Of a stretch of DNA of 64,000 nucleotides, positions 26,464 to 51,100 are shown one piece after another; the stretch's first letter is position 1, and the number at the start of each line of letters is the position of its first letter. Origin of the DNA: a virus (lineage: Duplodnaviria > Caudoviricetes). Position numbers and translations under genes: made by a program. The stretch spans positions 32,001 to 96,000 of the IMG/VR virus record IMGVR_UViG_3300013830_000002; one strand, 5' to 3'. The notes under the pieces were generated by a model. It was given only the letters and a program-made list of their open reading frames with translations, was not told where the DNA came from and made no database searches.

Positions 26464-29400
26464 TTAACTAGCAGATTTAGTATCTCTTTCATACATTGCC
26501 CAAGAATCTTTCATACTTCTGAAGAAAGCTTGACTTCCAGAGATTGTTTGCTTAAGTGTTTTGCCCCCAAAGAATAAATTATAGCTGTCATTAAGAATTT
26601 TACTTTGCACTTTATAAGTAGCAGGATTTGTTGAATTTCCAAGATATTCTACTATATTTAAAGGACCTTTGAATGTATCATAAGAACTGCCTGCACCTTT
26701 ATATATAAGTTCAACTCCTATATTTGCAAGCATATCCTTACCATCATCATTTTTCTTGTGGTCTTTATACGCTGGGTCTAAGAACATTTTAAACAAGGCA
26801 GAGAAGAACATCATTACCAGCAAATCAGTAAGAAGCCTTCTGTAATTAGCTCTGTTTCTTTCGTTTGCCCAGACAGTATTCTTGAAGTTTTTCCATCCTC
26901 CTGACAAACCGTCATCATCTACTCCGTTTACAAACTCTTTTAATGACTCAGCAAGTGTTTGCTTAATGCCCTATACCATTATAGGACAAGTTTTCATAAC
27001 AGGAACACCAGTGTCTTCTGTAGTTGTATTTCCATTAGGTAAAAAGAACAAAGGCTAGCCATTATAGTCTGTTTCCTGCATAGTCACAAGCTCACTTTGG
27101 CTTATTTGTCTGCCCTTAAAGTAGTTATCAGTAATACCATTCATCCAGGTAGAATAAAAGCAGAAGTTTCTTCCAATAGCAGTTTGCTCATATTTAGCTT
27201 TTGAACTATCATCATAAGCACCATAAATACTCTCTGAAATAGTTTTTATTGCTCTGATTTCTGTAGGAGTGTATGCATCAGGTAAGTCATCAGTATAAGC
27301 CAAATCAGTGCCATTTTCAATATTGAAAGCCCTTATTTTTGAAAAATATAATGACTGCTGTTTTTTATACTCAGGATTTGATGTATCTCCTGAAGCATAA
27401 ACTGAGAATCTTTTGTCCTTTCTCCAATCATATTTAATACGTTTTGTTTTACTGTCCAAAGAATAAGCATCATAGGCTCCATCGTGATGAAGCTTGGCAA
27501 TAAACAAAGTCATTCTGTTTAAATAGTCAGGAGCTCGTAATGTCCAATATAACCAGTTTTCACCATTAAGAATACCATATCTGCTGGATTTTAATCTTTC
27601 TGCTACACGAGCTGCATCAAAGTTGGAAAATCCGTATTTAACATTAAACTGATTAAACATTGTCATAGAATCAAGATTTTTCATGCTATCCTTAAACACC
27701 ATTCCATAGGCAAATGCTACGTCAGAAGCATTAATATCAGTTTGAAACTTAATTGCAGCCATTAAAAAGTTTTCTTGTAATCCCTGCAGAGTATCACGAA
27801 CAGCTCCTGCAGGATTAGCAGGGATGTACAAAGCAGTAACCATTTTTTTAAGAGGTCTTAGATAAGTATCGATAGCTTGTGTTTCTGGAGTCATTATTGA
27901 TTTTCCATAAACATTTTGATTAATGAAATCATCAATAGTCTTAATAGTATGATTTACCCCAGCAGTGTCTCCTTCAGCAACCCCCTTCAAAATGAGTCCA
28001 GTTTCAATGGCTTTTACCCTCATTAAAAGTTTGTTAAATTCATCACATTTAACATCCTCTTGCAAAAAATCAACAAAGATATTTTCAAGATTGGTTTCAA
28101 AATAGGATTCTCCTTTTTCATCAATCATCAAATCTCTTTCTGGTAAACTGGTTTCAGAACGAGTATATTTGTTATAGGTTCTCATCCCAGCAATAGCTTT
28201 ATCCCTGTTTTCAACATCCCCCTTACTTATAAACCCTGCTACCTCATCAATGACTTCCTTAGGATGCTGGGCAAATCTGGCAGTAGTTTTAACCCAGTCA
28301 ACAACCTGTTTTTTAAGTCCTCCATTAAGGGCATTCATTCTATGAGTTGCAGAGGATGCTCTTTGTAAAGGCACAAAAAGATAGTCAGCGGGCATTTCAG
28401 TTCTGAGTTTGCTGTCATTAGGACCTGTTATGTCACAAGGTTTGTGGTGCATATCACATTTGACTCTATAGAACTGGTAAAGTATGTTTTTAAGAAACCT
28501 TCTTTCATAATCCTTTAGGTAGTTTGTATTGCCTTCCTGTTCATAAGGATTTTTTAGAAGAAAAGTATTACTTCCATCGTCAGCCAGCTAGTATAAATTA
28601 TTATATAGACGAGCTTGGTCTCCAATAACTTTTCCTTCAACAGAAGTAAATCCAGCATCAGCATAAAATTGCTTGAATACTGGCATTACATCATCAAAGA
28701 ATCTGTCAAGTACCCTTGCCCTGACATTATCAATGGATTTCTAAAGAAGGTAGCCAACACGTCTGACATTACTGTTATTGATAGAAGTTGTTTTCATGAA
28801 GTATTCCTGCATAACACTGAACTGTTCATTGGTCATCGAAACATCACCATAATATTTTGAAAGGGCTTGTGTAGCTTCTATGTAAAGCTTTGCAATAATA
28901 ATATTTCGGGGACTTCCTTTACCTTGTACAAGGTCAGCTAATGCTTGAGGATTGCTGATGTCAATATTATTACTTTCTGCAATTGAGGTAAGCCTGTCTA
29001 CCAATTGACGAAGCTTCTGCATTTTCTGTTCAACAGTCTCCACTGTCATAAGGCCATCAGTGGTGAGACCTCCTGCATCTTTCTTTCCTTCAAAAATTTC
29101 ACCTAAGTTCTTGATTTCTGTCATATCAGAAACCATTTGATTATTCAAAATGTCTTTCCAGGTTTGATAAACTACTTCCTCAGCAGATACACATTTAATG
29201 TTATTTTTCCTGAAATTATTTTGGATATTAGCTGGAGTATTGCTATTTACAACAGAGATAATCTGCTGCCATACTGGAAGAAGCTGGTCAAATTCATAAC
29301 TTACGGCTTTTTTAGATGAGCCCCCACCCAAGCCAATAACTTGCAGGTTTCCTAATGTAATATCACCCAATGCTTTAGATTCCACTATTTGATTGATAAG

Positions 29401-31071
29401 TGCCATTGTCCTGATAGCATTTATATTTCCATAGGTACTTTTCATCTGAAAACCTAAATTGTTGGAATCAGGTAAATAAAATCCAAGAAGATTATCTCTT
29501 CTTTTGAATTGATACTTTATATCAGGGCTAATTCCAGTAATAGTAAAAACATCTATTTGTCCTTCCTTATTTTTAAACATTATAATATTAGCTTCATCCA
29601 AGGCAGGAATCTCAATTAATTTCCATTTGTAGTTACCATCAGAATCCTTTTCATAATATTTAGAAAATTGTCCTTGAAGATAAGCTGCATCAGGACCTTT
29701 GATATTAAGAGCAAAGAAATCCTTTCCGTAAGCTTCTTGTAAGGCGGTTCTGATAAAGTGAGCACTTTGATTTCCTGAAGAAGCATCAATTATCTTTCCG
29801 ATTCTGGCTTGTATAAGCTTTACTAATTCAGCATTATGGGAGCCTTTTCTAACATCAGACAAGGTAAAGGTTTCCTGTGTTTGAGGAATAGTGATTTCCA
29901 TTTTACCATCTTCTGTTTTGTTGTAGTAAAAATGCTTCCAATTGGCATCAATCCATTCTTCGGCAGTCATCATCATACCCTCAGCCATTACATTTTTTCC
30001 TGGGAAAATATGCTTAAGCTACTCAGACACCTTTACTAAATCAGAGCTTCTTACTGCTTCAGTATTAATATTAGACTCTATAAACTATTTAGCTGCCCTG
30101 TCATATTTATCAAATGTATATTGAGTACCATTATAGGTAACATTTTTCTCCTGCTCAACGTTAATACTCTCTATACCATTAAAATCCTCATCGTATTTTA
30201 TCTGAACAGGGATAATGTGCATTACGATGTAGTTAGTAGAAATACCATGATTTGCAAGCATCTGTTTAAGCAGGGCTAATTGATATTTATACTTCTGCAT
30301 TTTAGCTGCTGACCATGTGTTGAAGGGCTCTGTAGAAGTCTTTACATTATAGAGTTCAATTTCTCCATTTTCCTTTACTACCAGATAATCAATGTGTCCG
30401 AGAATTTTTTCAGTCATTCCTTTCAGTTCAGACTCAAAATTAAGATTTTTAATAACCTTACCACCACCTGTTTTATCTGCTTTTCTTCCATGATTTTTCA
30501 TTACTTCTTTCCAGATGGCACCTTCAGCATCAATAACTTGCTGAGTGGCCTCATCAAAAGCAGTACCTTTAGTTGCTTTTACCCACTCCTCGTAACTACT
30601 TTGATTATCATGCCCCATAATAAGTTTATGAAAAACAGTTGCATTTTCAGCAATGTCCTCCCATTTGCTCTTAATAGTGGACGCCCAAGTTTTCATTTCT
30701 TCTTCTGACTTTCCAGCTTTAATCTGTTGCTCAACAACTCTGGCAATATAGTCATCAGGATTAAGTCTGAACATAAAGGGATTCCCCTCAACATCCTTAA
30801 AGTACTCTGAATCAATAAATGTCTAGGTAGTAAAATGCTCTTTGTCACTTTCCAAGTCAGGACTTCCGTCTATCATGTGCATATTCTGATGGTCCAGTTT
30901 AGCACTCTTTTTAAAGGCAACGATTCTATCATACACAGCTCCTTGAATATCGGCATCATCAAGACTAAACAGAATATCAGTTGCAGTGGCTCCATTATTG
31001 ATAATCTCATTAATCAATTCTGTATATGACTTATATTGCTTTCCATTATATAAATAAATACATTTAGGCAT
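26464..31071 (-). CDS. ~1535-aa virion/ejected protein with degenerate PD-(D/E)xK domain (TAG=Gln)
   Basis: ORF pieces 31071, 30774, 29988, 28452 and 26907 share one frame and break at TAG; GHIDYLVV..IELYNVKTS..KYKYQL. Confidence 0.85.
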
Positions 31072-33799
31072 TGCAGTTCTCTATAATTTTATGGTCTTTA
31101 ATCATCTCTTCTACAGCATTAGTAGCAATACGCTACTTCTACATCTGAGTTGTTACATTATCATTAGTAACCATTTTTTTAATAAACCCGTCAAAACCTA
31201 TATCAGAATCATTTACAGCGGACTTATAATACTCAATATGACCTAATATATCATTCATAGTAGTATTAAATAGCTGTGCATCAAATTCTTTACTTGTTAA
31301 AGTTTGATTATCATCTAGCTATTTAGCTATCATATCGGCTACAGTTTCTTCTGCAATATCACGACGTGCAAGATTAGGATAGCTTCTACGTTTGTAATCC
31401 ATACTAAGCCTGAAATTACCATCATTCATATAAGTCTGAATAATTCTGTCATATTCCTCAGGATTATTTACCTTTATAATTCCAAGTACTATATGTGCAA
31501 CTTCATGGTATAAATCTTTCAAATTAGAGTTGCTGGTATTTATATAAATCTGTCCGTTATATATAAAGGCTCTTGTTCTTTTTAATTTATAGTCAGGAAT
31601 GATGCCTTTAAATTCCTCTTGCAGCTCTGAAAAAGTTCTTTGATTTATTGGAACTCCATACTGTTTTTGAATATGTTTGCAGGCAGCATCCATTATCTGA
31701 GTTACATAATCCCCGATATTTGTATCCCCGATTTTCCGACCATTGACATCAAGTTTGCTTTCTTTGTCTCCTATTTGTCTTAGTGTAACAATAGGAACCC
31801 CAGTTTCTTTATTTGGAATTATCTTCTCAACTATATAATTAAGTTTTTCTGCATTTATAATCTCATTAATATAGCTTTGTATTATATCTTCTGGAATTGC
31901 AGAGATAAGGTCATAGGGTGAACTTCCTTGAAGTTTATTTTTCTGTATATAGTCAGAACATTTAGCTAAAAATGCAGCAGCCTGTTCTGGAGTATATATA
32001 GTTTCAGTTCCTGGAATATTCCTGAGTACAGAATGAAAATATGTCATTGGTTGCCTGAACATTTCTGATATTGAAGGGACCATACTCTTAATTTGTGTAG
32101 AAGGTACTTGAATGTCAGATACTGTAAGAATCTGTCCAACTCGTAAGTCTTTCTATTGAACACGAGTTGTCCTTTTATCAGGAGTTTGCTTAAGTGTAAA
32201 CAAAGAGTTCTCCAAAATAGTGGATGAATTGTTGGCAGTTTCAATAGCTTTTTTAGCAGCCTCAATAGTAGGAACAAATTTCATGTGTGCTGGTGGAGAA
32301 ATAATGTTTCTTCCAACAGCATAAACAGTCTTACCATTGATTAGTCTTCTATAAATATACATTCCCTGATATTCTCCATTATTAACTCCTTCTTCATTTA
32401 CTGGAGAAAACAGATACTCTGTATTATAGCCAAAATCGTAAATCTCTCCTATTGATTCATAAGGGAAACTAAGTGTAATATAAGAAGTAGATTCTCTCGG
32501 AGCTACTTTAACTGTTTTAGTCACTATGTAATCATAGTTATAAACAATTTTTCCAGTGCTTCCAAGATGTGCAGTAATTACTCTGGGAAGAATTTGCTTC
32601 TCGTCATCTTCAATAGGGATTTCAATTTTATTACTGGTAATAAAGTCAATTTTTTCCTAAGCAGATAACTTATCAAAATCAGAGTACTTTCCCCATAAGT
32701 TTTCATTCCACTTTTTCGCAAGCAGCTTTGCACTTACCTATGGACTTCTGTGCTCTGTAATTGTTTTTACTTTATCCTCAGCAGTATCATTAGGCTGACT
32801 AAAGGTAATATCTGAAAGGGCTGCTCTTCCTAATTTAGGAAGTCCCAAGAACAAACCTGGATTTTCACCATTTTCATCACTGAATAATAGTTTAGACAAA
32901 GTATCGTTATCAGCCTGCTTAAATGCCTCCCATGAAACTTTATCTGCAAAATCAGGAATGTACTTTGCAAGTACATCATAAAAAGCCTTCTTAGGTATTT
33001 TCCAATCAAACTAATTATCTGACTTAACCGTTATCTGCTATAATGCCAACTCTAAATCAGTAAGATTATTATCAGAATTCCAGATACCATTTACTTTAGC
33101 TAGAATATTACCTAAAAGCTTTCTTGAGTTATGCACTTTACCATCACTTCCAACATAATCTGTAATAGAATCTCTGTCGTTAAGATACTGTATCAAAAGT
33201 TTTTCAGGAGTATTTAAATTTTTAGAGGTCTTTTTGTAGTCTACCAATTCCTGAAAAGTTTTCCATAATTCTGGACCAACAATCTGTTCAAGACTTCCAT
33301 CTTTCAGAGCTTGAGCTATTCTCTCCTTAGACTTAAGATACCTTAAAAACTTCTATGCATCATATTTGGATTTAATTACAAAAAGCTCTTTTCCATCAGC
33401 AGTAATAACCCGTCCGTTATATTCAACATTATTCAGTTTGAATTGATTACATCTGACAATATTATACGAGTTGTATAAAGACACATCATTAAACTAAAAT
33501 TCATTTCCTAAACCATATTCATCTAACAGTCCTTGAACCGTTGTATTACCGACTACTTCTCCTGAATTAATCATTTTAATAGTCAATGGTATTGCCTTGG
33601 CTCCTGATAGACTATCAGAAATTTCCTTTAGCTTAACTTTGGATTGGTGGCCCAAAATTTGAGCCACCTATTCCATAGTTAATTTAGTATTTTCGTCAAT
33701 ATCTACACCTTCAATATTATCGAGCTATATGGTTTTAGATTCCCGTTTTTTAGTTTCTTGGTTATATACTGGTATTTGTAAGTTTACTATACATGCCAT
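31064..33799 (-). CDS. ~911-aa protein with C-terminal zincin-like metallopeptidase (TAG=Gln)
   Basis: Starts MACIVNLQ; pieces 33247, 32524 and 32083 in frame; RAFIYNGQIYIN..LYHEVAH..IAEETVAD; ends KIIENCNA. Confidence 0.82.
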
Positions 33800-33800
33800 A

Positions 33801-36800
33801 TCAGCATTTCTTTAATATTAAAATTCTTCCAGACATTGACTGGTCAATCAATGTATCCTTTATCTGTTTAATCTGAGCTTCACTTGGTTCTCCTTCAAAA
33901 ATAAAGGACTTAATCATTGCAATGGTCTTGGCCATTGAAGGCATTTCAAACGGACTATTTTTCATATAATTCATTCGTCTTATTTCCTTCTGCTCTGGAG
34001 TTTCCTCTGTAGATTTAGTAGGAGGAAGTATTGCATAAGGAGAATATGAATTATCAGAATTTCTCTGATATACTATATAGGTCCAAACAGGGTCTTTTAC
34101 TTTAACAAAAGGCTCAGTATGAAATTTCATAGCATATTGTGAAATAAGTGGAGCTGCATTTATCTGGTAGTCAATTAGCTTGTAATCAGGTACAAAGTCA
34201 TAATCATAATCTTTTGTACCAACAAAATTGAAGTACTTGTTCAAAATGCTGGTTTGCCGTGAACAAGCTTTGAAAGCAGTAGTAAGTCTTTCACTTCCAT
34301 ACTGGTTTCTGTTGACAATAATATTATATAATTGCAGGACATCAGCTATAGTCATTGGGTGTTTATTGTCAGGGTAATCAATAAAGTTTTCTCCATTTCC
34401 AAATTCAGTACTCTCAAACCTTGCCATTCCAGTTAAGATTTCTCCATAGTCAACTTCTGATTGAGAAGTAATATTAGGATTCATCAAGTCAATATCTGTA
34501 GTGAGAAGTGGTTGATTTCCTATTTCTGTAAGAGTTAAATGTTTAACCAGTGGATTATTTTTATAATTGTCTCTTAGATACTGTAAGAAAGTAGTCTCAA
34601 CAAAATGTTTGAATCCTGCTATACCTTCCATAGTAGACAAATCATAGCTGTCAACCCCACCTGTAATCTCTGCAAATGAAGAGTCATATCCTACAGAATT
34701 CATGCCTTCAGGTAAAATAAACTAAGGAAGAGACTTACAGAATTCGTAGGAATTAAGTGCATCAACATACCTTATTACTCCCTGAAGTTGTTTATCACTC
34801 AGATAATTTTCATTCTGTGTAAGTTTGATAATCAAACGGCTCTTCATTGCTAAATTATTGGCTGTCACCAATAATTTCAGACAGTTCATAATCTGAGCAT
34901 AATGAGGAATCTGATAAACCATGTCGATAGCATTGACAGTACCCTTAAGTACATCAAGATAATCCTTTGCAATCTTCCTATAATTACTGTCATTCATCAT
35001 TTTAACAGGGTCAAAATTATTGATTATATCTGCTTCATTTGCAGCATCAAAAGCCCTTACTATCTTGTCTTCAGTTAAAGTAGGATTGTTTTCCTGCAGT
35101 CTTTCTACAAGATTCTGCCAAGCAGCAACAATTTTTGCCTGTTTCTTCTCATCATTAGAAGTTTTTGGATATAACTCTGATTTTTTGACCTCAAACAGAT
35201 TTTCCCTGTCAGATATTACCCTCTTTATGCTTCTTATTCGTTTGAGAATGTCCAATTCAGAAGTAGGCAATCCTTGATTTAGACCTAATACTGCTGAAGC
35301 AACAGTGGTCATTTCCTGAGAATAGTTATATATTTTCTGAAATTCATCAGCATCTGCAATCATGTCCTGTTCAGGCATTCCAAGTGCCTTATAGCTTTTG
35401 ACAACATCCTGAAGCTGCAAAGTCAAATCCCAGCAGTTTCTGATGTAATTGACTACCTCAGGGTCGTCATTCAAGGTACTGTCAAAATTCATAAGTTCTG
35501 AGTATAGATTAAATGTCTGATTATATACTTGAATATCTGGCCTTTTAGCTATAGCTTGAATAACACCACTCATAAGAGTATTCAAGTCAATATTGTTGAG
35601 TGCATCAGGGTCAGTCTCACTTCCGTTAAGAAGAGCAATCCTGACCTCCCTTTCAAGTTGGTCATTAGCTTTAATAAAATCAACAAGAGTGTTCCTTACA
35701 ACTTTAGATTTCTAAACTGGAGGATAATAATCCCCTGTTACAGGGTCTTCATATCCAGGATAACTTCCATGAATAAAGTTATTTGCATTAAGAATACCTT
35801 TAGACAATTTAATTGCCGTAGCAGCACTTACATAACCATTTTCCGTTTGGAACATATTTACATTAGACCTGCTGTCAATAAACTCTCCAATAGGAGAAGT
35901 CATAAAGGCAGCAATATCATCAATACTGTATCCTTGAACAATCAAGAATGCATACATTTTAGCATAATTGGTTCCTGCATTAAGTTTGGCAAGAATCAAT
36001 TCCTTAGCGTTCATTTATATTAGTAAATGTATATTTACCATACTTATATTTTCATATAAGATTAGACTATATCATAACTTCTGTTGAAGTTCCTTGTACT
36101 TCGGAAATTTTTCCTACTCTACTCGATTTTATTTCAGTCTTTCGATAGTCGTTGCTCCTTCTTCTTATTTATATTAAGAAGCTTGGGTCAGGGTTGTCCA
36201 ATTTTTAAACTTATTACTATATCTAAACAATTAATTTAGCCCTATAAATATTACTATTTATAGTTAGTATTTAAAACTTTAGGAATTTCCCTGAGTTCAC
36301 AAGGTTTTTTACTACGGACTCCGCTTATTTATATTTTAATTTATCTATGGTAATAATAGTGATTTAATCATCATAACCAAATTCTTTCAGCGCAATATTT
36401 TTCTTAAAAATTGTTAAAAACACTTTAATCCGTAGCGGCTGAAAGCATTTGAGAAATTGCCTGGTCAACATATTTGTAACCAGCCTCTTCAAGTGCTACT
36501 CCAAGTTTCTGAGTTAAAGCACTGTTAATTTGCTCATCAGTTAAATCAAGGTCAGGAAGTACTCGTGTAACACTTTCAATAGGAGCATTTTTTGCTCTGC
36601 CCTTTATTCTGTTCAGAGTTACCTGATACTTGAGGTATTCTATAGCTTTTGGATTTCCAGATTTTAGAATCTTAGTCCAGTAATAATAATCGTTAAACCA
36701 GAATTTTTCTGCATTTGCAAAAATACCAATATCCTTTTTACCTACCAAATTCTGGTATTGCATTACATATTTGGTAAAAGGATTAAGCATATTAAGATGA

Positions 36801-39800
36801 GCGGTCTGCTCCCCTTTTGGTGAATTATCAGCTGCTCTACGTGGGTCACTCATACCGATAGCTGTGTAAGCTTGGTCACGATTTCTGATGTCACTTGATA
36901 CAGCATAGATGTTTGCAGAAGCTACATTCTTGTAAGCTTGTTCTGCTACACTTTCAGGTATTTCATAACTTTCCTGCAGAGCAATGGTTCTCCTAATTTG
37001 GTCTATGACAGACTTGCTTATATTTGAGTCTGAGATAACATAATAACCACCATTTTTCTCTATTTTCAATAAAATATTTTTAAGATGCTTTAGATAATTT
37101 ATTCTTTGTTTTTCAGAGTACATCTCTGAAGGTCTGATATATTGAGTTGGAACTTCCTTTCCATTGCCGTCTACTTCAGAAGATTCAGCATTTTCAAGGA
37201 GTCCTATAACATCCTATGAAATATCCAAGTCTTCTTTGGTGAAATTATCATAAAGGATTTTACCATTTTTACTCATTAAATATGGAGTTCCTGTTTCATC
37301 TAATTGCAGCAAAGTGGTTTTAATACCCTTTGGAATCGGAAGTTTCTTACTTTCCTCAAGAGTTTTCACTGTCGTAAAATCAAAGAAGGGACTCCATTTG
37401 ACATATACAGAATTAGCACTATAATTCTGACCCATTATATAGGCTTTATCAATATCATAGTCAGAACCCTAAAGGTATGTTTGGAAGTGACTTACATAAG
37501 CCATATTTTTACTATTTTCTGTCCATCCTACCAGTTTCATAGTCATAAATGACTGAAGAGTCTGTGCAGGAATACGGGCAGCAATGAACTTCAAAGAGTC
37601 TTGGAATGAAACCCATTTTTTATGAGCTTCTTTTTCTAAATAATCTCTTTTTACATTTACTAAATGCTGTTTCTTTTTAGCATCATCACTGGAGAGCAAG
37701 TCTAACTAGTCTTCAATAGCACTATGAAGATTGGGGTCAAGAGTTCCTTGACCGAGCACTTCAATTAGTGAATTTCTGATAGCATTGACCTTGCCTTTCT
37801 GAAGTCGCTTCTCTCTGTTTATTTCAACATATTTATAATCTCCAGCATTGAAGATAGAAGCAATAATATGTTTTTGCTATCTTAAAGCATCAGTATTTTT
37901 AGTATCATCAGTTACAGTTTTCAGGTCTTTTTCAGTGTATCTAAGAGCTTCCTTAATTTCATCTAATGTAGCAACCTTGTACATTATATTATTTTTAAAG
38001 AAGTCTACTCCTTTAACTGTGCTTTTTGTCTTTATGTTATATCTGGTAACAAAATTTATCTTTCGCTGTACAATTCCGTCTTTTACTCTGTACATAGATT
38101 GGTCAAGTTCCTGATTATCCTTAATAAACTTGCCATCTCTATATTCTACAGAACCATCATTTACCCATCTTCCTATTTTAAATGACTTCTTTCCTCTTTC
38201 TACAGCATATATGTCTGCAAAACCTTCAGCATTATGCTCCTCAGTAGTAATATTGGTAAAGGGAACTTCTGTAACGGTTTGACTATCCTCAGTTACATTT
38301 CCAATAGTAATTAATGTATGTTTTCCATTTTCTCTTAAGAAAGCATAATCGTAAATATTATTTTTAGGGGCTTGTAAATTTTCTGTTTGCCTACGGAAGA
38401 AATCCTCTCCATCACTAAGAATTTGGTCTAATGACTTACCATCAGGAACTCCAAAGGTATTCTTATATGGGTTACTCATTATCAATTCAGCATCCGTATT
38501 CTCTAAAGTGTCTGCTTTCATTCCAGTCAACCACTCAGCATTTTTGTTTAGTTTACTTATAGCATTAAAATTTCCCTCTGATGCATTGTAAACATCATTT
38601 AGAGTGGCTTGAACTTCAGCCCTGTAATTAGGACCTCTGTTCTCCCAGGAATTCTTAATAGCTGGAGTATCAAAAATATTCATCCAGTGGTCAGTACCAT
38701 CAGCTCCAGTGTATTGCCATCTGATAATTGAAGGTCTCAGGTTATTAGGAGCAGTAGTACACTTTTTCAAGACCATATCATGCATTATTATTGTGCCATC
38801 AGGAGCAATTCCTTTCTTGAAATTATAATAGGTTTTTAAATCCTTAATATCAATGATTAAGTCATTGTTATTTTTATCCTTAACAGCTGTACCATCAGCA
38901 TTGAATACTGCTACAATATCAGATGGCATAAAATATTCAAGACTTCTTGCAGGCTCTTTTGCCTATAACTGTTTCAGATAGATTTGAAGCATTTTCATGT
39001 TGGCCTCATGCGCATCATCTACGTTATGAATAGCATCATAATATTTAGGAAGCCTTATTTCTGCAGGAGTGCTTCCATTCTCTGATTTCTTTGATTTATT
39101 CTCCTTGTTTCTTAAGTTAGCAACCTGTTCTGCTTTCTTTTCAAGTTGGGCAATTCTTGCAGTACCAATACCGAAACCTTCTTCATCAGTAGCTTCTTTA
39201 ATAATATTAGTGTTAGCATTACCACTTTCATCAACAGGATGAGTCCCATATTGAATCAGAAAATCCTGAAGTTGTCTTCTGTAGTCCTCTTGAGCAAGTC
39301 TGATTACATCAGAAGCCATAAGTTTTCTGGGCCCATTATCAGTACTTATTTCAAAATACTGTTGCATATTATATGCAGGAGCCATGACAGCACCAGTGCC
39401 TGGATGTTTACGTTTAATAGAATTCTTATTTATAGTTGAAGCAAGGGTAGCAATGAAGTCTGAGTAAATATTAGCATCACTAAATGGAAGCTTGACTTCG
39501 TCTTTTTCATGGTTACTATATTTATTGAATACATGTAAGACTGCCTGTTGGATTATATTGGTCAGATTTTCATTGTCCTTGATAGAACTATTCATAAAGA
39601 TAATTCTGCCAATTGCATCATAAAGGTCTGATTTAGCCTGACTGATTTTGATTTTATTCTTGGCATCAGCTTCCATTGCCTCTGTATCAGTCATTGGTCT
39701 TGTATTTCCCTGTGCATCAGTAATTGTATAATCAGTTTCTGCAGCCAAAGCATCTAAGAATTTATTTACTGCAACCAATGGCTGCTGTGATGCCTGAAAT

Positions 39801-42800
39801 GCAGTTGAGGCAAGGCCTTTAAAGATTTCATTACAGTTATTATAGGTAAATCCATAGGCTGAAGTAGCTGCAATAACCTGACTGAACTCAGTAAGTTCAG
39901 AGTCTACAATATCATGGTCTGCATTCATCTGCATTCCAAGACCATCAGAGTCAACCTCAAACCATGTCAAGTCTTCATCATCTTTCCATCTTTCTTTCTA
40001 ATTTACATTTTTAGCACCATTTTTAACAGCTGAATTGTTCAGGATATATCCTATCTGATACTGTTTCAGAGGTTGCGTATAAGTAGTCTGGTCAATATAT
40101 GGAGTACCTTTAATTCCTGGTTTCTTGCTTCCTATATTGCACATATAATTGCAAACTACCTCATTGTTATATTCACCGAATATACCTTCCTTGTTGCAGC
40201 TGTTTATTCCTCCAAGGGCTGAATGCAGTTCGAACAATGAATTAATGGTGTGAGCCCCCTGATGCTCAGAGACAAATTTAGCTGCTTTTTGATAAGTGTC
40301 GAAAGTATAGTGTTTCGATTTGGTAATGTTTCCGTTTTCATCCACTGAATCATAGAAAATATGGTACTTATTGACAGTGTTACCATAAGAATCCTTTTCA
40401 ACAGTATAGTAATACTTAGCTCCATCTTGTGTAACAGTCCTGTCAAGAAGCTTGATTTCCATTATGTTACCATACTTATCTTTATAGCATAATGGCTGAT
40501 TGCATGTAATATTCTTTGCAAACCACTTTTGAAGAGCCTCTCCTTCAGCTCCTGAAATAGAAGCTTCCATTGTAATAGGTCTGGTCAAATCAATATTGTC
40601 AGCAGGATTCCACTATAAGTTTGTTGCTTTCCTGAACATATTATATAGTCTGACACTTGCGGCAGAAGAGCTTCTCATAGCTTCATTAGTCATTGTATCA
40701 GTAGCAAATTTAGCCAGAAAAGCTGTTCCAGACTCTCTGTCATAGCTGTGCCAAATAGGTTTCTTAATAAATCCTACTGCCTGAGAGCCAAGTGCCCTGT
40801 TTTCCAAAATACATTGGAAAGGAGTAATTTGAGCAGAGCCATCACAAGCATCAATATCACCTTCGTGGTCTCCTCTATAATTATAGACAGGAGCCTGGTC
40901 ATCCTTTACTACTGCACACTTGATTCTTGGTGGAATACCATCACGGGAATTCTGTACACAGTATTGAAGTGTTGCAGGAATGATGACATTACGCTTAAAT
41001 TGTGTACTTTGTCTGTTATTTAAAATCTGAATGTTTGACGTTTCCCATAAATCCTGCAAGAAAGAATGTGCAGAATCTGTTTTCCCTTGCTCAGAATATA
41101 GATAATTTCCCAAATCATTCAGGTCATTGAACCTGAAAGCCTAATGAGCTTGATTAAATATATTGCTGTCAGTTATGAATTTTATGTCAGAATAATTTTT
41201 GTCTCTCTAATTTTTATCAAGCTATGATTGAGAATCTAACCACTATTTTACCTAATCATAGGATGTGAATTTATGTGCAGCAACTCCATTGTATGCTTTA
41301 TGCAGTTTATCAAACCATGTTTTGGTTTTTATAGGATGATTAGTTTCAAATCCAGTAAGTGTATAGCGAAGCTGATTGCTTAGGAATCCTTCAACATAGA
41401 AGAACTTGTCTAATAATGGATTTAGTTCTACTTTTTCATTAGGATTAAATCCATCACTCAAAGACATTATATTTCTGCCATTTTGTTTAGCAATAATCAA
41501 CTTACCAGTAGACTCATCAACCCAATTTTTAAAGAACTCAGTCCTAGCTTTGATTTTATTTTCCTATTTATCACAGTATCCTAAAATAGTCTTAATAATA
41601 GGATTCTTTGATTTTACGTTACTGTCAATAGTATCAGCTTCATATTGGCTAACAGTATCACCATCAGTTAAAACCTGATAAGAGCAATAGTTCTAAAGTA
41701 GTTGCTGAACAAAGATAGCCTTCTGTTTTTCCAAAAGTCTGTCAAGCATTCCTCCTTCAGTTGTGGAGTTATAAAGTTTCTGGTTAAACAGCAATGAACT
41801 GTCCAATTGGCAGAACCCTGATTTTAGTCTGACATAATCATGGTTCAGGGTTACAGAAAGGTTCATTTTCTGTGCTTGTGTCACAAGCTGGCTTTCTGTA
41901 ATATGATGAAGCATAGTATTTAAGTCAGTCTGTGGAGTAGATGTATAGAAAAATCTATTCTCTCCTTGATTCAGGAAATTGTCCAAAGCTACTTGCTTGT
42001 CTTCCTGCTTTTCAGTACTATTTAAAATCTCCAAAGCCTTTGCCTTGACTCCTGTAGCATACGCCTGCACAATTTGATTTAATTTACCTGTGCTGGCATC
42101 AAGAATTCTTTTAGTAGTAATTCCCAAAGTTTCGAAGTACTCATTGAGGAGCTCGCCTTTAGACATTGTCATAAGGTTCTTTCCTTTATAAACAGGGTTT
42201 AGTTCCCAGTTCAGGAAAGTGGTTTTATCCGAATATGTAGTAGGCTGTACAATTACATGTCCAGTAGCCAAATAAGAATCCCAGAATTTATTAAAGATAG
42301 CATGGAAAAATAGCTCTCCGTTTGTGAAATCAGAAATAGCCTTTGTTTCCCCCTCAGTATTAGTAACTTCCAAATCATGAAATGTTTTTACTATCATGTC
42401 TGGATTCTGAGCAAAAAGTAAGAATCGTACCTTTGAGTCTTCAGCAGCTTCTTTCTGTAGATAATAAACAAGGTTTGTACCTAGCTTAGCCACTGTATTA
42501 TTAGGAATTGAATTACCCGCAGAATCTTTAGTGGTAGCTTTTGATGCTTGCCCTGATAAAACAGACTCTGCATCTACCCATTGATTGATTGTCTGGTCAA
42601 AAGTAGTTGCTACTACTGGTCTCAAATCATTGAATACTTCAGTAAATGACCTGTTGGATTTTTTGCTTCTAAGATAAGCCATGTAAGCTGCATTACTTGT
42701 ATCTGACAAATATTTAGCCAAAGGCTTTCCTACTTTATTAGCATCGAGCCTCAATTTTTCAGCATAAGCAGATTTCATCGCCATCCTAAGCAACGGCTGA

Positions 42801-45157
42801 ATGAAATAATGAAATCCTTCTATAGGACTGTAAAGTTGTTGCAGTGTTCCTAAGACCTGAAGATTTTTACTTGGATTGGAAAGCAGGCCAAGTCCTGTGG
42901 TGTCATCAATAAATTGGAGTACCCCATTCAGCAGCCTTGCACCTTCACTTTCAAGTGGAAGGGAGTGCATTTTAGAGTATCTGAAATTAGTTGCAATTCC
43001 TATATTGGGATTTGATATTTTCTGAAAGAATTCAGATGTAACATCTTTTGTTACTTCTTCCCCTTCAGGAGTTATTTCATTTTTTGTTACCTTAAAGTAC
43101 ATTGTGCCTTCCTAACCAGGCCTGACCGTCCCAAATATTCCAGCCTTAATGTTATTAGATACTATTAAGCTGATAGTATAGTCACCTATTTTAACTGAAT
43201 ATTCTGTATTCTTACCTATTTTAGCAAAGGAATCACCAAGCTGTCCTTCAGTAAGTTGATATTTGTCAGCAAGACTTTGAAGCTTGTCTGTAGTCATTGA
43301 GTTTGCAAATCGGTTAACTCTTGTTTTTGTATTGAACTGGTCCTTTACATTGAAGAACTTTTTCTTGGCAGAAAGCTTCATCAGCCCTGTACTGTAATCA
43401 AACTTTGATTCAAGATAGTCAGCAACTGCATTCCTGTCTACATATCCTGCAATCTCTTCAAGAAGCACATTAGCAGCTGCATTTTCACGTCCTGCCTTAT
43501 TAGAGGCTTTTGCAAAAAAGGAATTAGTGTTTTCCCTGTCAAAAACAACATTATACACTGATTTCAGAATATTCAAATCATATCCAGTAATTTGCTGGTT
43601 TTGAATATCAATAGCATCTACAAGAGCTTTTGACATACCAGGTTGCTTTGAGAAAAGCAGTTCAAGGATTTTCTGAAGATTCCCAACAGGATTAGCATGG
43701 AAGTTTCTGGCCAAACTGTATAGCTCATTGGCATAGTCATTTTTATTCTTTCTTCCTTCTCCTGGGGTAGGAATATATTCAGAATCAACCTTAATATCCT
43801 TGAATGTGATATTATGTGTAATCAATGCATCCATAAGATTTCTGGAAGCAACAATCAATGATGTACTATTTACACGTCTATGTGTGTACTCTCCTGTTTT
43901 ATAGTTGAATACACCAATCATATCAAGCACGGTTTTTGTAAATTGTGATGTGTGTTTTTCGGCACCTACATCTTCTGATGTCTGCCACCCCTTAACCTCG
44001 TGCTTTACATCCCTGTGATATGAATATTTGGTATCAGAATCAAATTCTGCATTCTCAAGGCCTTCCTGAATGTCTATATTATCACCAAAAGTTTCCTTTA
44101 TAAGCTGGTCAAAATGAGTAAGCATTGTATAAGCCTATGAAGCACTTAGTAATGACGGAGACTCCTTTTCTATTTCACTAATAGCTTTTTTATCGTCGTC
44201 ACTGCCATATTTCTCAATATATTTTTTCAAGAAAGCATAATACTGAGAGTAATTTTCTCCTTCATATAGCTTTGTAGGTGCCTGTCTAGCCTTGAATCCA
44301 GTAAATTTTTTATCAGCTCTCTTTTTAAATTCATCCGATAAATATAATTTATTCCAAAGAGCTGTATATTTATCAGTTTTTTCCTTCTTTTCCTGTTCAA
44401 GCAAGACATTGTTTTGCTGAGTTTGCAATTGCTCAGAAAAATCGTCTATTTTCTTTACTTTATCATAGAAGAAATTAAGGGCATTATAGTAGTTAATAAG
44501 GTCAAGCTTTCCATCCTCATCATACATTTCTGACTTGAAGTCTGCTGCCTCTTCTCCGTATTGCTGCTTAAGGTATTCCACAAGAGACTTGAACATTCTT
44601 GCTTTTTCATCCATTATTCTAAGATTCAAAGTATGATTGTCAAAGTCAGTCATTTCTCCAGTAAACTGGTCATAATATGTAGCAGTTGAAAGCCTGTCAG
44701 AAAATGTTCTCTGTAATGCCTGAATTATAGTATACGAATCCAGGCCATAAAATTCTTTATAATGCTCAGTAAGGTTTGCCCTGTTTTTATCCTGAGCTTC
44801 AAATTTTGTTTTCGTTTCATTGTCCTAAGACGGAATATCCTCTTGGGTATTGTCCATCTCAAAATTCATGACATCACTGATTTTCTTTTTGATTTCAGAT
44901 ACTGACATATCTCCTGTATATGCAGCCAAGACAGAGTCAATAGTCTTGTCAAAAAGTCTTAATGAGTCAGCAATTTCAATATCATCATCTGCTTTGCCTG
45001 GAGATAATCTAATCTGATTACCAGGATGTCTAAATTGCTTAATGTAAGAAAGGAAACCATTAAGGTCTCCTTTCTTTAGACTTGCATTAAGCTTAATAAC
45101 TACGAATTTAACCTGCTTATCATCAAACAGTTTTAATCCACATATTTCAGCGCTCAT
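33801..45157 (-). CDS. virion-associated crAss-type RNA polymerase, ~3650 aa, spliced (exons 45157-36428 and 36011-33801; TAG=Gln)
   Basis: ARIPAQTLQSFM...YL*GSDYDIDKAY (DxDxD catalytic motif); DGS.Q; SAATD|NAKELILAKLN restored by splicing. Alternative start at 45163. Confidence 0.9.
36012..36427 (-). mobile_element. ORF-less group I intron (416 nt) in the RNAP gene
   Basis: GAT|TAA 5' site; terminal G at 36012; GTGAACTCAGGGAA (P), AACCCTGACCCAAG (Q), GCAACGACTAT (R), ATGATATAGTCT (S). IGS AGTCCGTAGT pairs with exon GCTACGGAT. Confidence 0.92.
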
Positions 45158-48100
45158 CAGCATTCAGTTAATTTATCAAATAGTTCACTATCTATTTCAG
45201 CTATTGGTTCAAGAATATCAGCATATTCTTCCACCCAATCATTAAACATCTTATCAATCTCAGATTGTGGAAGCTGTGTATTTCCCACTATCTGATTGAT
45301 AGTATCCACAAAATTAGTAAGTCTGTTTTCCTCGATTGAGTATTGCTTAAACTCCTTTGAGTTAACAAGTTGCTCAAGTATCTTTCCAACAGTACTATCC
45401 CTGAAGTTTCTTCTTAAAATTGAGGTATTTTGCTCAGTAGGCTCTGATGGCTACTTGAAGGTATCCTCAAAGCTGGACTTACTAACAACAGTTATATCAT
45501 TTTTATTGATGGAATAGGTGCCTGGCTTTAAACCGTTTGTCTCATTGTCAATTTGCACCTTTATAATTCCATTTTCTAATTTAACGTTTTCTATAGGTAC
45601 ATTGTATTTGGTGGCAATGTATTCTTTATAAGTAACAAACCTATTATTTACGACATCAAATGTTATAAAGCTTGTATCTGACATTAAGTCATCAGCACTC
45701 CCATTTCTGTAAGAGGAGCCAAGCATTTTTTTCATATCTGTCATATAGCTGTTTGCCACATCATTCATGTCCTCAGCATCATCAAAATATGAAGAAAGTG
45801 CAGGATAAATATTTGGATAGTGCTCTTTGAATGTATCAGCCAGTGATTTTGGCTGCTCTCCAGAAGGCCCTGTTTCCTATGGTGTAGTAGTTTCCACAGT
45901 GACAGGATTAGTTGTAGCTTCCATTAATTTTGATAAAGGAATTCTGATTCCAGCTGTTCTCAAGTCAAGGTCTGACGTAAATAATGCAGGATTAGTACCC
46001 AGTTCAAAGAATAAAATAGTAGGCTGTATCTGTCCTTCTTTAGCAGCTGTAACAGTACTGATGTCTGTACTTGCTGTACTTGACTTCTGTCTACTTAAGT
46101 CTGGATTAATAAAGAAGCCATGCTTAAAGTAAGCATCGGTAAGCTACATGACTTTCTTTTGATGAAAGTCTTCAACTGTGCCATGAAAGATAAGATTAAG
46201 CATATCAAACAAGCTATTATCAATAATACCGTTTTTCGTTGGAGAAAGTAACGGTTTAGAGCCAGAATTTCCTGTTAAAAATTCAATTAAGCTTGACTTA
46301 ATCACATGCTCATCCACAGTACTGCCCTGACCGTCACTTGTATAGAATTTACAAGTCACATTTAATTTATCCTCTGGTGTAACGGCCATGACTTCAGGAT
46401 TATGCTGATAATAGGCAATTGTCTTAACCATACCAGAAATCAAAGCAGGAACAGCTGACCAGTATTCGCCCTAAGTGTACATTACCTTTCCTGCCTCACC
46501 TCCAATAGTAATAGTACCACTGTTACCTTTAATATCATTGATGAATCCTGATAACGACCTTCTGACAGCTTTTCGTGTATCAGCTGATTTACTGTTAATA
46601 TCAATATACTCATTGGCAAGGTATGGAGTTTTTGTATCTGTATGCATTAATGCAAGGTGCAATGAATACATTTTTGTGTCAGTACTCAAGCTCTCTCCAT
46701 CATGAGTATCCTTGTCAGTAACCATAGGATTAACCAGGGCATCAAGCATCTGCTTGAATTGTCTTGCTTTATCCAAAGTAATCGAAGCAAGGTTTACATC
46801 AATATCAGGTTTTGTATAAGCAGTTGTTCCCTTAAGGCTGAACCTTTGAATATGGAAACCGTTTATATTTGTATTATACCCTATCCTGAACATAGGAATA
46901 TCCTTACAAGTCTTTTCGGTAAATTCCCTAAATAGTTTATAATAGGAATTTTCCTCTATGTTGTCAGTATTGACATTCCCAAAAGTCTATAAGATTACTA
47001 CTGCTTTCTTAAGAGCCTCAGAAGCTTTTTCCTTATTCTTTTCTGTCTTACTTATATAGATATTGTAATCAGCCTCTGCCAGTTTGTCCATTTGCTCATC
47101 AGTAATATTATTATCTGATTTCCACTTATCATAAGTATTAAGCAGATTGACCAGGGAAGCTCTTGCATTCCATAATGACACAAACATTCTTATACCAGTA
47201 AAATTCTGTCTGTAAGGACGTCTATAGCCCCCTTCACTTCCTTGCATCTGACTTATAAACCTTTTATTTGTCATTTGTGAAAATGATAGTCCGTAATTAT
47301 TAAGAACTACCATTTTTACTACTGGTTTATGATGCATAGGGTCTTTGATTTGCTCTAACCATTTTTGTGCAAGCTGGTCAGACTTCAGTAAAGTGTCAGA
47401 TGTAACAAATATAATAGCCTTGCCTTTTAAGGTTCTGTCTATCTGGAACATCGGGTCATTCAAATCCCTACCTGAGTATGTATAAACAGGAGAAAATACC
47501 ATATTCGGATTATGGTCTATCAAAGTGTCAAGGTCTGTTGCATCCTCAACTTGCTCACCATTCTCAACTGGCTATTTGATAGTATCAGGATTAATTCTTC
47601 CACCAAGTCTTATAGGAACAGTTCTATGTACTGACCAGGTTGTTTCTGTAAGGTATTCAGGATTTACATTTCCCAAATCAACATCATAAGAGCCATTCTG
47701 TCTGAATTTTGTAAGTTGGTCGTTAAACCAGGATGTGTATCTTGTAGCTGCGCTGTTAAGATTATCGGACATTGACTGTAATTTAGCAATATCCTTTTTA
47801 ATTCTTTCAGCAGTTTCAGGTTTAATATCAGGAGCTTTAAGCTTATTCTACAAATTACTTATTTTTGCTGCCAATGACTTAGTCAGTTTTCCATCAGGTC
47901 TTGCATTTTCCATGAATGTCTTAGGGTCAGTAAGGCCAGCTAAGTCAATTTTACATATACGACCTTCATCGTTTTTGCACTCAAATACTATATTAACATA
48001 GTATGGAACAGGCTTTCCTCCTTCATCAATATTAATCACTCCGTCAAGCATCCAAGGAGCTTTTACACTATCATCAGCAAGTCTTATTTCAAGTTTGAGT

Positions 48101-51100
48101 TTTCCTGCTTCCCAATTTTTTCTTGAAATCTAAGACTGCACTGATGGAGGGAGCTCATTCCAATCATGCCCAAATAAAATAGCAGATTTGGTAGCATACA
48201 AATCCTTTAACAGAGACTGTTTATCACTGTAAGTATGATATTCATTTCCATCTTCCCTTTCAAGAGTTATTGCCTGTAGATTACGTAATACTCCTGTTTT
48301 AGGGAATTCTACTTTCCAAGGCTGTCTTTTCCCTTTGTGCTGAACACCATTTACAGTGTATGTAAATTCTTCTTCAGGAAGTACTGTTACAGACGTGACA
48401 GTTACTTTTCCATAGCTTTCAATTGGATAATCCTGCCATCCTTCTGCACTATTTGTATCAGGAATGACCTCATTGCTTTGCTCTTCAGTATCAGCCTGTG
48501 CACCCAATGTATGCAACACTTTTTCAGAATCAGTATCTATTGTCTTTGTGTCTGGGTCAGCCATATCATCAGCTGTAACAATTTCCTCTTTAGTGTGGTC
48601 TTGACCGTCATTAGTGTCATTGCCCTGTGCAGGTTGAGGTTCCTTCTACTTAGGTGCTTCTGGAGTTTTATCTTCTTTCTTTTGTGCTGTAGGCTCTTCC
48701 TTTTCCTCTTCATCCTGCTCGAATGTAAGCTGATTAAGAACACGTTTTTTAGCTTCAATCAAATCTTTTATACCAGCTTTAATGGAAGGAGCAGGGGTTT
48801 TCTGATTGGATATGACATTTTTTCCAATTATATCAGAAAGTCCATTATCAATAAAAATTGAAGCTTCCCTTGCACGGGTCATAAGAGTATACAGTTTCTG
48901 CAGCTCTTGATAAGCAGGACCAGTGGAATTAGGTTTAGTGAACTTTTCATCAATAACCACATAATCAAATTCCTGTCCCTACATTTCCTTCATGCTCATT
49001 ATATTTTCCTTTGGTATGTTTATTCCTGCTTCAATAAGTCTCTGTAGGTGGGCAGAAGAAGTACTTCCAATGAAAGCAATAGTAGGCATTGTACCGTCTG
49101 CCTTCTTTGTAGCTAAAGATGCCTTTATTTTATTTATGGTGTCTTCATCTAAATCTTTAGTAATAAGGTCTCCGTTCAGAACTGTGCTTCTGTAGATTCT
49201 GAAGTTCAATTTGGACATTTTAGCCTGAATTTTTGGAAACAGACTTTCATATTCTGCCTGAGTAGAGTAATTCCAGGCTTCAAGTACTTCATTTAATAAA
49301 CCTCTTACATCATCTTGATTTTGGGTTTTCTGCAGATTAGCATCCCTGAGTGATACAGACAGCTAAGGAGTCCTGACTGCCCATACAGAACCGACACCTA
49401 TATTGGAAACTTTATTATTCCCATTATATGCACCATTTTGTGCAGGGTCTCCTGTCATAAATACTTGAGCTCCTGTTTGTCTAGCATATTCACTTATAAT
49501 TTCAGCTTCTGCAGTGCTTAACTAAGTTGCCTCATCAATATAAATAACTGATGGAGTATCATCAATTTTATTGAAATGAATTTCATCTTTATGCAGCTCA
49601 ACTGTGTTGATTGCAAAAGGTGATTCAAATACCTTAAAGTATTTACTACTTTTTCCTTCAGGAACTTTCCTGAAGTCATCCATTATTTCCTTATATTGTT
49701 CCTTGCCTAAGATTTTTTCAAAAAGTTCCTTAAATGTTATGGATGAATCTCTGCCCATAGATTTTTGCATAGCTAACGCCTGTGTTGCAGTAGGCCCTGC
49801 AACAAAAGCAGTTTTATCCTTGAAATTCTAGTCAATTGTCTTTAAAACAACCTAAGTCTTTCCAGCACCAGCAACACCAGGAATAATGGTTACATTATCC
49901 AAGAAAGGAATGTTTGTCTTACTTTGGTTATATGCCTGTTTTACAATTTGCCTAAAAGTGTCCGTGGTAGAGGCAATGGCTACACGAGTATCGTATTCCT
50001 AAACTGTAATAGGAGCAATTGTCTCATTTGACTTTACTCTTGCTGCTAGTTTTGAGAAGAATGTATTTGGATTGTATGAAAACAGAGTTGCAAAATAAAC
50101 CAACTTGTCGTAGTCAGACATTGAATCCAGCTTAATTTTATCATTTATTTCTGAACTCTGCTGTCTTGCTGTCTTACTAATATCAGGAATTATTTTCTGA
50201 ATCAGATTACTCTTTTTAATGAATTCCTCAGTTGATAATCCAGAGTCTTTTAGAGCATTCTAAAAATTTCTGTGAATTATCTTTTCCATTTCAAAAAGAG
50301 GAATCTGAACTTCATCAGTAGAAGCCTTTGAAGTATCTATAGAAGAAGCCCCATCTATTAAATCATATTCCTTGTCACCTACTTTTACTTTCAAATCAGT
50401 ATTAGAAACCAAATCCCATAAAGCCTTATTCAAGATAGCATCTGTACGGGCCATCTTTTTGAGCTTGTTGGCAGTATTCTCATCACTGAATTTTACCCAC
50501 CTTTTAGCTTCTTCCTCATATTTATCAAGTTCAGAGCTAAACAATGTAGCATAATCATCCCTTAACTCTGGAAGTGGTTTCCACTCTGTCCTGAGCTTAT
50601 CAGCATGAGCTTTGGCAAAATCATTGATAGTTGCATTATGGCCAATAGGTGACATACCAGTTAATCGTTTAGTAGTTGCAGAAGCTATGTATGCCTTGAC
50701 AAGATGGAAATAGTTTATTGCCTTTTCTATGTCACTCTTTTCAGCGTCATTGAGTTGTAACTACTGAATATCATTAATATTATCATAATTATCCTAAATA
50801 GTGGAAATAATCTTTTCAAGATTAGGAAGGTTATCACCAGCAGAAGCTGCTACTTGTTGAATAAACTCTGTAATAGGATTTTTGATAGAGGTATTTATTT
50901 TCTCCTGAAGCTTTACTAGTGGATTGTTCTTGACATTAGCTACTATATTGTCTATCTGAGATTGTGCAAATGAGGTATTTTTGCTTGCCTGTTTAATAAT
51001 GGCATCCTAGAACATTCCAGCACTGATAGTTCCTTGAGCTAAATCTCCTAAGGTTATAGTAGCTATATTCTCTACCCCACTATTAAGTAATGCCTCAATA

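Follow-up and report, generated by a model that had tools for sequence, protein, structure and literature searches.

Four giant proteins encoded one after another on the minus strand of a viral DNA, here designated A, B, C and D, were found to carry a cysteine (Cys) at each of the six termini that face a neighbour in the series and at neither of the two outer termini. The DNA analysed, hereafter called the window, was a stretch of 64,000 nucleotides (nt) corresponding to positions 32,001-96,000 of the 166,778-bp IMG/VR virus record IMGVR_UViG_3300013830_000002 (G000). The terminal-Cys pattern is real and far beyond chance, and the sequences suggest that A-D are tethered end to end, probably by disulfides, into one thread of ca. 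9,200 residues. The best explanation of their sequences is that A-D constitute the RNA-polymerase cargo block of a crAss-like (Crassvirales) phage. We put the probability that docking at each successive junction is locked by one interchain disulfide, making A-D a single threadable chain, at roughly 0.55.

Terminal cysteines of the four proteins

With genetic code table 11, the minus strand from ca. 26 to 62 kb of the window was a row of open reading frames (ORFs) of 150-470 amino acids (aa) each. When TAG was read as a residue, giant minus-strand ORFs appeared, namely those of A, C and D at the coordinates given in Table 1 and two for B, at 36425-45163 (B1) and 33801-36014 (B2). Glutamine (Gln, Q) is present in 22 to 29 of 31 homologues at the conserved columns where D carries TAG, and one of the 29 tRNA genes that the genome has outside the window carries the anticodon CTA; these two facts support the reading of TAG as Gln in this phage. 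Twenty-eight of the tRNA genes form a cluster at G000 150307-164256, which includes a tRNA-Cys gene and the CTA-anticodon gene (158340-158415) that would read TAG, and the remaining one is at 186-260.

The gap between the B1 and B2 ORFs (410 nt) falls within a group I intron. Rfam model RF00028 (Intron_gpI) matched 36043-36328 on the minus strand over positions 1-253 of its 253 (E 8e-8, 42.9 bits; gathering score 50). The apparent stop codon of B1 (TAA) is the first codon of the intron, and the apparent start codon of B2 (ATG) is its last three bases; the exon before the 5' splice site ends with GAT (U), and the ATG at the 3' end places G last in the intron. The exon join (...SAATD/NAKELIL...) is exactly colinear with the unsplit B of the relative L005 (...LLSAATD NAKELILAK...), and spliced B comprises 3,648 aa. 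Judged by the Gln columns, the CTA tRNA, the Rfam match and this colinear join, the recoding and splicing adopted in the initial annotation of the window were sound.

A starts with MAKANDW, which is free of Cys, and ends with FDKLTEC. B starts with MLMSAEIC or, from its second ATG (45157; Cys at residue 6), which overlaps the A stop codon as TGATG, with MSAEIC, and ends with SGRILILKKC. C starts with MAC and ends with DHKIIENCNA, and D starts with MPKC and ends with DTKSAS, which has no Cys. Cys was thus found at 6/6 facing ends and 0/2 outer ends, in a series that contains 38 Cys in 9,187 aa (0.41%) compared with 1.26% across all ORFs of the genome. The chance of Cys lying within 8 residues at all six facing ends was ca. 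1e-9, and none of 200,000 random placements of Cys matched all six, the maximum being four of six. The initial annotation had read these termini, and the low Cys content of the proteins, in the same way. It had also described a pattern shared by the tails of B and C, which holds in a loose sense; both families do end with hydrophobic-x-hydrophobic-x-x-C, but the family motifs differ (G.I.E.C in C; I.I.C or L.D.NC in B).

Conservation across relatives

The survey covered 80 IMG/VR loci around homologues of C and two GenBank genomes (82 loci in total). Both Cys were present at the A-to-D junctions in 57/57 distinct sequences, and at the junctions between the two upstream genes (up2/up1) and between up1 and A in 0/4. 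Five additional A/B junctions from diverse genomes, which were read from the genomes directly, the alignment of the B N-terminus being too divergent as a search seed, also obeyed the rule. The C-terminal Cys of the A family was present in L001, L002, L087-L091, phi14:2 gp078 and crAss001 gp47, and that of the B family in 80/80 IMG/VR loci. The GenBank phages MT835470 and MT835492, at ca. 29% identity, kept the rule. In MT835470, a standard-code phage, the 2,967 aa of A contain a single Cys, located 5 residues from the end, B starts with MAC and ends with INC, C has Cys only at position 3 and at its last residue, and D has Cys only at position 3. D in this phage is followed by a 30-codon ORF starting with MACTVE, which was rejected as too short.

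When C was used as the query against 1.84 billion representative proteins, 367 matches were obtained. Among the 101 listed representatives of at least 700 aa, at 50% identity or less, 95 had both an M-x(1-6)-C start and an E-x-C-x(0-2) end. Five of the six exceptions were checked on their contigs and proved to be artefacts, namely one frameshift (beyond it, the frame ends with VIEEECK and a stop), three missed GTG starts (MSKC) and one missed upstream ATG (MKC). The sixth, a protein of 704 aa, may be truncated at its C-terminus, as the highest-scoring segment of its match stops near query residue 653. In several relatives, a GTG start of the C gene lies inside GTGAGTAA(A/G)TGT, overlapping the B stop codon, or an upstream ATG is used (L093 2780-2800; L095 1390-1410; L096 1335-1355; L094 1480-1500); the public gene calls in L093-L096 chose a later ATG, and the MSKC or MKC head was lost.

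In an alignment of 45 C-family sequences, the invariant columns were C3, H765, E766, H769, Y783, D814, E817, E818 and C909, so that the terminal Cys are as conserved as the HExxH motif. The D family showed the N-terminal Cys in 36/37 homologues (motif MxCxYxxNG; C4 and Y6 invariant) and a C-terminal Cys in 0/37. The same arrangement was seen in two cultured phages. In phi14:2, gp078 (1,797 aa) has a single Cys, its last residue, gp077 (2,180 aa, the crystallised RNA polymerase) has Cys3 and Cys2179, and gp076 (1,421 aa; HExxH at residue 245) has Cys3 only; the 4 Cys in these 5,398 aa thus all lie within 3 residues of facing ends (chance ca. 2e-12). These proteins are gp67, gp66 and gp65, respectively, in Drobysheva et al. 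(10.1101/2020.03.07.982082). In crAss001, gp47 has a lone Cys (C2339 of 2,341 residues), gp50 has C5, the internal C1334 and C2404 of 2,412, and gp49 has C5 only. The genes of gp47 and gp50 lie on opposite strands, and gp47 still has the C-terminal Cys; the rule is therefore independent of gene adjacency. The terminal Cys noted in the initial annotation are therefore conserved in orthologous cassettes.

Gain and loss of cysteines at gene breaks

In MT835492 (TAG read as Gln), A is divided between two proteins, with Cys at each of the termini created by the split (...EACKVIA-stop / MQSNC...). In the fused A proteins, no Cys lies within 60 alignment columns of this split site, and A of MT835470 has none at all except near its end. 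C of L033-type genomes is split into proteins of 333 and 549 aa, with the new ends ...RKGCE-stop and MAC.... Fusions of B with the zincin-like domain also occur (P0151, P0152); P0152 has Cys only at 3, 3755 and 3884 of its 3,885 residues, and none at the junction. The ORF breaks caused by introns, many of which lie inside the DYDID codons, provided an internal negative control and showed no paired terminal Cys; both interrupted ORF ends at the B intron of the window are free of Cys. The intron-split B of L015 (...RQNCSL-stop / MGLC...) was considered as a Cys-bearing break and rejected, as comparison with unsplit L017 showed the first Cys to be intron read-through and the second to be internal.

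The conservation together with the fission and fusion data requires a selected pairwise relation between the C-terminus of each protein and the N-terminus of another, and one that can be dispensed with after a peptide bond has connected them. A link at each successive junction is the simplest reading of this relation. The sequences strongly support the view that the facing termini are functionally paired and that A-B-C-D is an ordered series. Paired facing termini were the core proposal of the initial annotation, which has gained from the order-wide conservation, the Cys pairs at fission points and their absence from fusions and intron breaks.

It is extremely improbable that the pattern results from nucleotide signals at the junctions (translational coupling or start/stop overlap) or from chance in a few related genomes. 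The genes do abut or overlap, and an ATGA overlap forces the last codon to be NNA and so accounts for the frequent position of Cys one residue before the end; without this overlap, Cys is usually the last residue. Cys is thus held as close to the end as the gene layout permits. However, the Cys codons vary (TGT/TGC), as do the neighbouring codons (Ala GCA/GCT/GCC; Ser AGT), indicating that selection acts on the protein. The up2/up1 and up1/A junctions are as tightly coupled and have no Cys, crAss001 gp47 keeps its C-terminal Cys on the opposite strand from gp50, and the rule is kept across representatives at 25-36% identity; these observations contradict a nucleotide-level origin. The stubs beyond the Cys are usually 0-2 residues at the C-terminus and 2-3 at the N-terminus, and reach 8 and 7 residues at most in the observed cases. 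A split intein was rejected, as 0-8 residues after the C-terminal Cys and 2-7 before the N-terminal Cys do not fit intein fragments.

Identity of A-D and their probable status as virion cargo

A contains a superfamily 1 (SF1) helicase domain (residues 1514-1862), which was matched by the Pfam families AAA_30 (E 6.7e-13, 49.2 bits; cut-off 27) and Viral_helicase1 (32.2 bits; cut-off 21), and by UvrD_C_2 (E 9.2e-6, 25.9 bits) slightly below its cut-off of 27.4. Pfam gave nothing on A-D beyond this helicase, and a PHROGs search with A-D gave no family. B has the RNA polymerase motif DYDID at residue 2568, whose counterparts are DFDID at 1361 in phi14:2 gp077 and DFDVD at 1483 in crAss001 gp50. 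With B exon 1 as the query, phmmer had no hit among PDB sequences at E 0.01 or better, nothing useful came from searching the same sequences with D or the C-family profile, and a single-protein locus search of IMG/VR with C gave no match.

D has a putative PD-(D/E)XK-like nuclease domain at ca. residues 110-290, with conserved H226, D228 and K257 (GHIDY...ExK-like). A model of the N-terminal 300 aa of a D relative (predicted local distance difference test score, pLDDT, 61.9) matched AddA in Foldseek (E 4e-4), and AdnA, Exo5 and Cas4-family proteins at Foldseek probabilities of 0.9-1.0. The SF1 helicase of A (window 48900-49900) and the AddA/Cas4-like nuclease of D (30200-30750) match the two activities combined in AddAB/RecBCD-type machines; an A-D chain would deliver such helicase and nuclease domains with the polymerase, on its first and last links.

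C has a zincin-like HExxH motif at residues 765-769, with the downstream acidic residues D814, E817 and E818 invariant in the 45 sequences. A model of this domain from a relative (pLDDT 67.6) was compared with known structures by VIA-align, and the matches were Certhrax 4fxq_A (Z 6.7; root-mean-square deviation 4.5 Å, 151 residues aligned), the anthrax lethal factor N-domain 3kwv_C (Z 6.6; 4.7 Å, 144) and 6psn_L (Z 6.5; 4.5 Å, 144), and the Pro-Pro endopeptidases 6fpc_A (Z 6.1; 3.5 Å, 128) and 9g0j_A (Z 5.6; 3.8 Å, 130), all of these Z values (5.6-6.7) being middling. Foldseek gave no match to the same model at E 0.001 or better.

The HExxH motif bears on another explanation, in which the terminal Cys act independently and their pairing is only apparent. 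Each might be, for example, a packaging tag, a residue modified covalently in some other way (thioester, lipid, ligation) or part of a cysteine switch of the zincin. Matrix metalloproteases are known to be kept latent by ligation of Cys to zinc, and the invariant HExxH of C lies ca. 140 residues ahead of the C-terminal Cys. This explanation nevertheless leaves unexplained why the N-terminus of A and the C-terminus of D have no Cys in every genome and why both Cys vanish together on fusion. A, B and D also carry terminal Cys without an HExxH of their own. We consider it quite unlikely.

In the crAss001 particle, gp47, gp49 and gp50 belong to the cargo zone of the capsid and must partly unfold to pass constrictions of less than 50 Å (PMC10172136). 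Mass spectrometry has detected the counterparts of A-D in the virions of crAss001 (Bayfield et al. 2023, PMC10172136) and phi14:2 (Drobysheva et al. preprint, 10.1101/2020.03.07.982082). For the polymerase, delivery into the host is also known from the papers on these two phages. The block of the window resembles those of the two phages in the order of giant genes after two Cys-free proteins (up1 of the window has one internal Cys), a DFDxD-type motif in the middle protein, a zincin-like domain with HExxH and the terminal Cys, and differs in having four proteins where theirs have three, TAG as Gln and a group I intron in the polymerase gene. The status of A-D as virion cargo here rests on synteny and motifs, which suggest that A-D are probably packaged in this phage as well. 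By position, up1 and up2 may be the counterparts of the crAss001 cargo proteins gp45 and gp46.

A proposed chain joined end to end by disulfides

The sequences themselves show the terminal-Cys rule, its conservation and its agreement with gene fission and fusion; the bond chemistry, the packaging in this phage, the threading and the release are inferred steps, which we envisage as follows. The C-terminal Cys of each protein would join the Cys at position 3-8 of the next protein, a short docking contact being locked by a single interchain disulfide once the particle leaves the reducing cytoplasm. The result would be a pseudo-continuous thread of ca. 9,187 residues, in which each split of the ancestral giant gene would be bridged by a terminal disulfide in place of the peptide bond. 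Since Cys at the extreme termini would keep the side stubs to a few residues, the joint would be nearly linear and the chain threadable. In a partly unfolded state, the joined chain could travel along the narrow tail channel, with each protein drawing its successor behind it, in a fixed order and a 1:1:1:1 ratio. Once in the reducing cytoplasm of the host, the links would open, and the helicase-like, polymerase, zincin-like and nuclease-like enzymes would be released.

The Cys pairs are read most economically as disulfides, and this is most likely the chemistry involved, as only one Cys per end is universal, crAss001 particles contain interchain disulfides and the block is otherwise poor in Cys. 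The scarcity of other Cys in the block (none in phi14:2) fits avoidance of wrong pairings. Whether the ca. 1-MDa enzyme cargo of Crassvirales in general is a single covalent ordered thread, with one disulfide at each meeting of a C-terminus with an N-terminus and opened by host reduction, we regard as an evenly balanced question.

Docking was evaluated by complex prediction for a cognate pair from the standard-code relative L039, comprising the last 230 aa of C and the first 300 aa of D. The score was 0.60, compared with 0.00 for the best of 3 controls; the runs agreed in at least 40% of contacts, and the pLDDT of the partner was at least 70. The mark applied in this analysis was reached by 58/80 solved complexes and by 2/110 mismatched pairs, and scores of 0.60 or less were found, among those passing the mark, for only 7 of the 80 solved complexes and for both passing mismatches. 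The L039 result is thus weak support, and for the docking of cognate tails and heads envisaged in the initial annotation it amounts to a weak positive at one C/D pair.

Several observations weigh against the disulfide-linked chain. Besides being weak, the complex prediction for the L039 pair returned no contacts, and the Cys-bearing ends had pLDDT values below 50 in isolated models. B of the window has 18 further internal Cys, so that here, unlike in phi14:2, the block has not been cleared of other Cys. Direct sequence searches with A-D found no connection to crAss001 or phi14:2 proteins. No Erv1/ALR sulfhydryl oxidase was found in the genome, a result that says little since the same search was also blank in all control genomes. 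Virions assemble in the reducing cytoplasm and the gut is anoxic, and the crAss001 disulfides could be a product of aerobic purification. Finally, pairings of another kind are also compatible with the numbers of N- and C-terminal Cys.

The last point concerns an arrangement in which the Cys pair, but not junction by junction, with B and C each closed on itself and A linked to D, or with some other matching. Equal numbers of N- and C-terminal Cys and their joint loss on fusion fit any perfect matching. Circular proteins, however, would be harder to pass through the tail, new Cys pairs appear exactly at both ends of a split, which is simplest if those ends stay together, and the C tail and D head that gave the weak docking support are neighbours. 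Such an arrangement is very unlikely in our judgement.

The joints may also be non-covalent, with the paired Cys, perhaps together with the Glu of the C tail and the Asp after the N-terminal Cys, binding a shared metal, or with two copies of the chain providing a Cys4 site. Such a joint would form in the reducing cytoplasm and in the anoxic gut, E907, two residues before C909, is nearly invariant, and many N-termini of the C family read MxCD; the weak docking support from L039 suits metal binding as well. On the other hand, one Cys per terminus alone is universal, the Glu and Asp being family-specific and absent from the tails of A and B and the heads of B and D, and two thiolates by themselves make a poor Zn or Fe site. 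We therefore hold a shared metal to be unlikely and prefer the interchain disulfide. A search of the genome for glutaredoxin found none. Among the plus-strand genes of the window, 17483-17713 matched the thioredoxin family (Pfam PF00085) at 43 bits, which exceeds the cut-off; its product may act on the cargo thiols or in nucleotide metabolism only.

Comparison with known systems

The cargo block, its polymerase, the zincin-like domain and the fused forms are already described in the literature. In the crAss001 structure paper and the phi14:2 preprint, the word "cysteine" is absent, and neither cargo Cys nor a link between the cargo proteins is stated. Full-text literature searches found no description of the terminal-Cys rule, in agreement with the initial annotation, which had regarded it as undescribed. 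The proposed end-to-end Cys joint is thus the new element on otherwise known virion cargo and ejection proteins, and confirmation of the covalent thread would make it a new principle. The crAss001 particle contains several interchain disulfides among its tail and portal-vertex proteins (PMC10172136), located in the tail hub, the ring proteins R1/R2 and the gp57 dimer (PMC10172136). They demonstrate interchain disulfides in a purified crassvirus particle but, unlike the proposed joint, they are at fixed structural interfaces, not at chain ends, and involve no cargo proteins.

The N4-like phages carry one virion RNA polymerase of 3,500 aa, and T7 and P22 have ejection proteins. As proposed for A-D, these are large proteins kept in the head until they leave through the tail, before the DNA or together with it; in N4, continuity is solved by one polypeptide. 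We know of no covalent head-to-tail linkage between separate ejection proteins, and the literature searches turned up none.

The docking domains of polyketide and non-ribosomal peptide synthetases offer an analogy. Like the proposed joint, they are short terminal elements that connect a C-terminus to an N-terminus and fix the order of giant proteins, and splits and fusions of the modules are likewise interchangeable, but they are non-covalent helical bundles without a conserved Cys pair and serve substrate channelling, not transport. Von Willebrand factor and gel-forming mucins form long linear threads through terminal disulfides. These, however, are homopolymers joined tail to tail and head to head through whole Cys-rich domains in the oxidising secretory pathway, whereas the proposed joint would use a single Cys and be heterotypic, head to tail and in a fixed order.

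How podophages store and export proteins that are much wider than the tail channel is an open question, and a conserved joint at every junction makes it testable in two cultured phages. If the chain exists, it would account for the fixed stoichiometry of the early transcription machinery of the most abundant human gut phages and for the order in which its parts are delivered. After gene fission, a terminal disulfide would in that case take the place of a peptide bond, and a split giant gene could still deliver a continuous chain. The Cys rule is also of use in annotation, as a marker of the real ends of proteins; with it, missed GTG and ATG starts, frameshifts and intron-split genes were recognised in public calls, and starts such as those of the C gene in L093-L096 can be corrected.

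Other features of the region

In the 5' to 3' direction of the minus strand, the block reads up2, up1, A, B (as two ORFs), C and D (Table 1).

Table 1 Features of the cargo block in the window (window coordinates)
Feature	Position	Strand	Description
up2	56383-61359	-	1,658 aa, 0 Cys
up1	54447-56381	-	644 aa, single internal Cys, no terminal Cys
A	45157-54438	-	3,093 aa with TAG read as Gln; Cys3093 is the last residue, TGC at 45160-45162
B exon 1	36428-45163	-	Residues 1-2912; Cys8 codon TGT at 45140-45142
Group I intron	36012-36427	-	416 nt inside gene B
B exon 2	33801-36011	-	Residues 2913-3648; last residue Cys, TGC at 33804-33806, then TGA stop
C	31064-33799	-	911 aa; Cys3 codon 33791-33793, Cys909 codon 31073-31075
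D	26464-31071	-	1,535 aa; Cys4 codon 31060-31062; no C-terminal Cys

Directly after D, an ORF of 270 aa on the minus strand (25539-26351) has two CxxC pairs at its end (Cys235, 238, 254 and 257). These pairs look like a zinc ribbon; the ORF lacks a terminal Cys and is apparently not part of the chain.

Many relatives have a different intron of ca. 1 kb within the DYDID codons of the polymerase gene (...WLQGSDY / DIDKAY...), for example at L001 26031-27066 and L020 4972-6063, and in some relatives this gene has no intron. Judging from these sequences, the polymerase gene is an intron hot spot at more than one site.

The counterparts of up1 and up2 in L001, L002 and L087-L091 have 0 or 1 Cys each, none of them terminal. 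The up1 proteins have a conserved ...(V/I)LNN end (window 54447-54470), and the A proteins have a conserved ...NDW(I/F)VA..NNP start (window 54410-54438); both are found at L001 10260-10330 and L002 7250-7320. The tail of up1 could form a Cys-free contact with the head of A, the first link of the chain.

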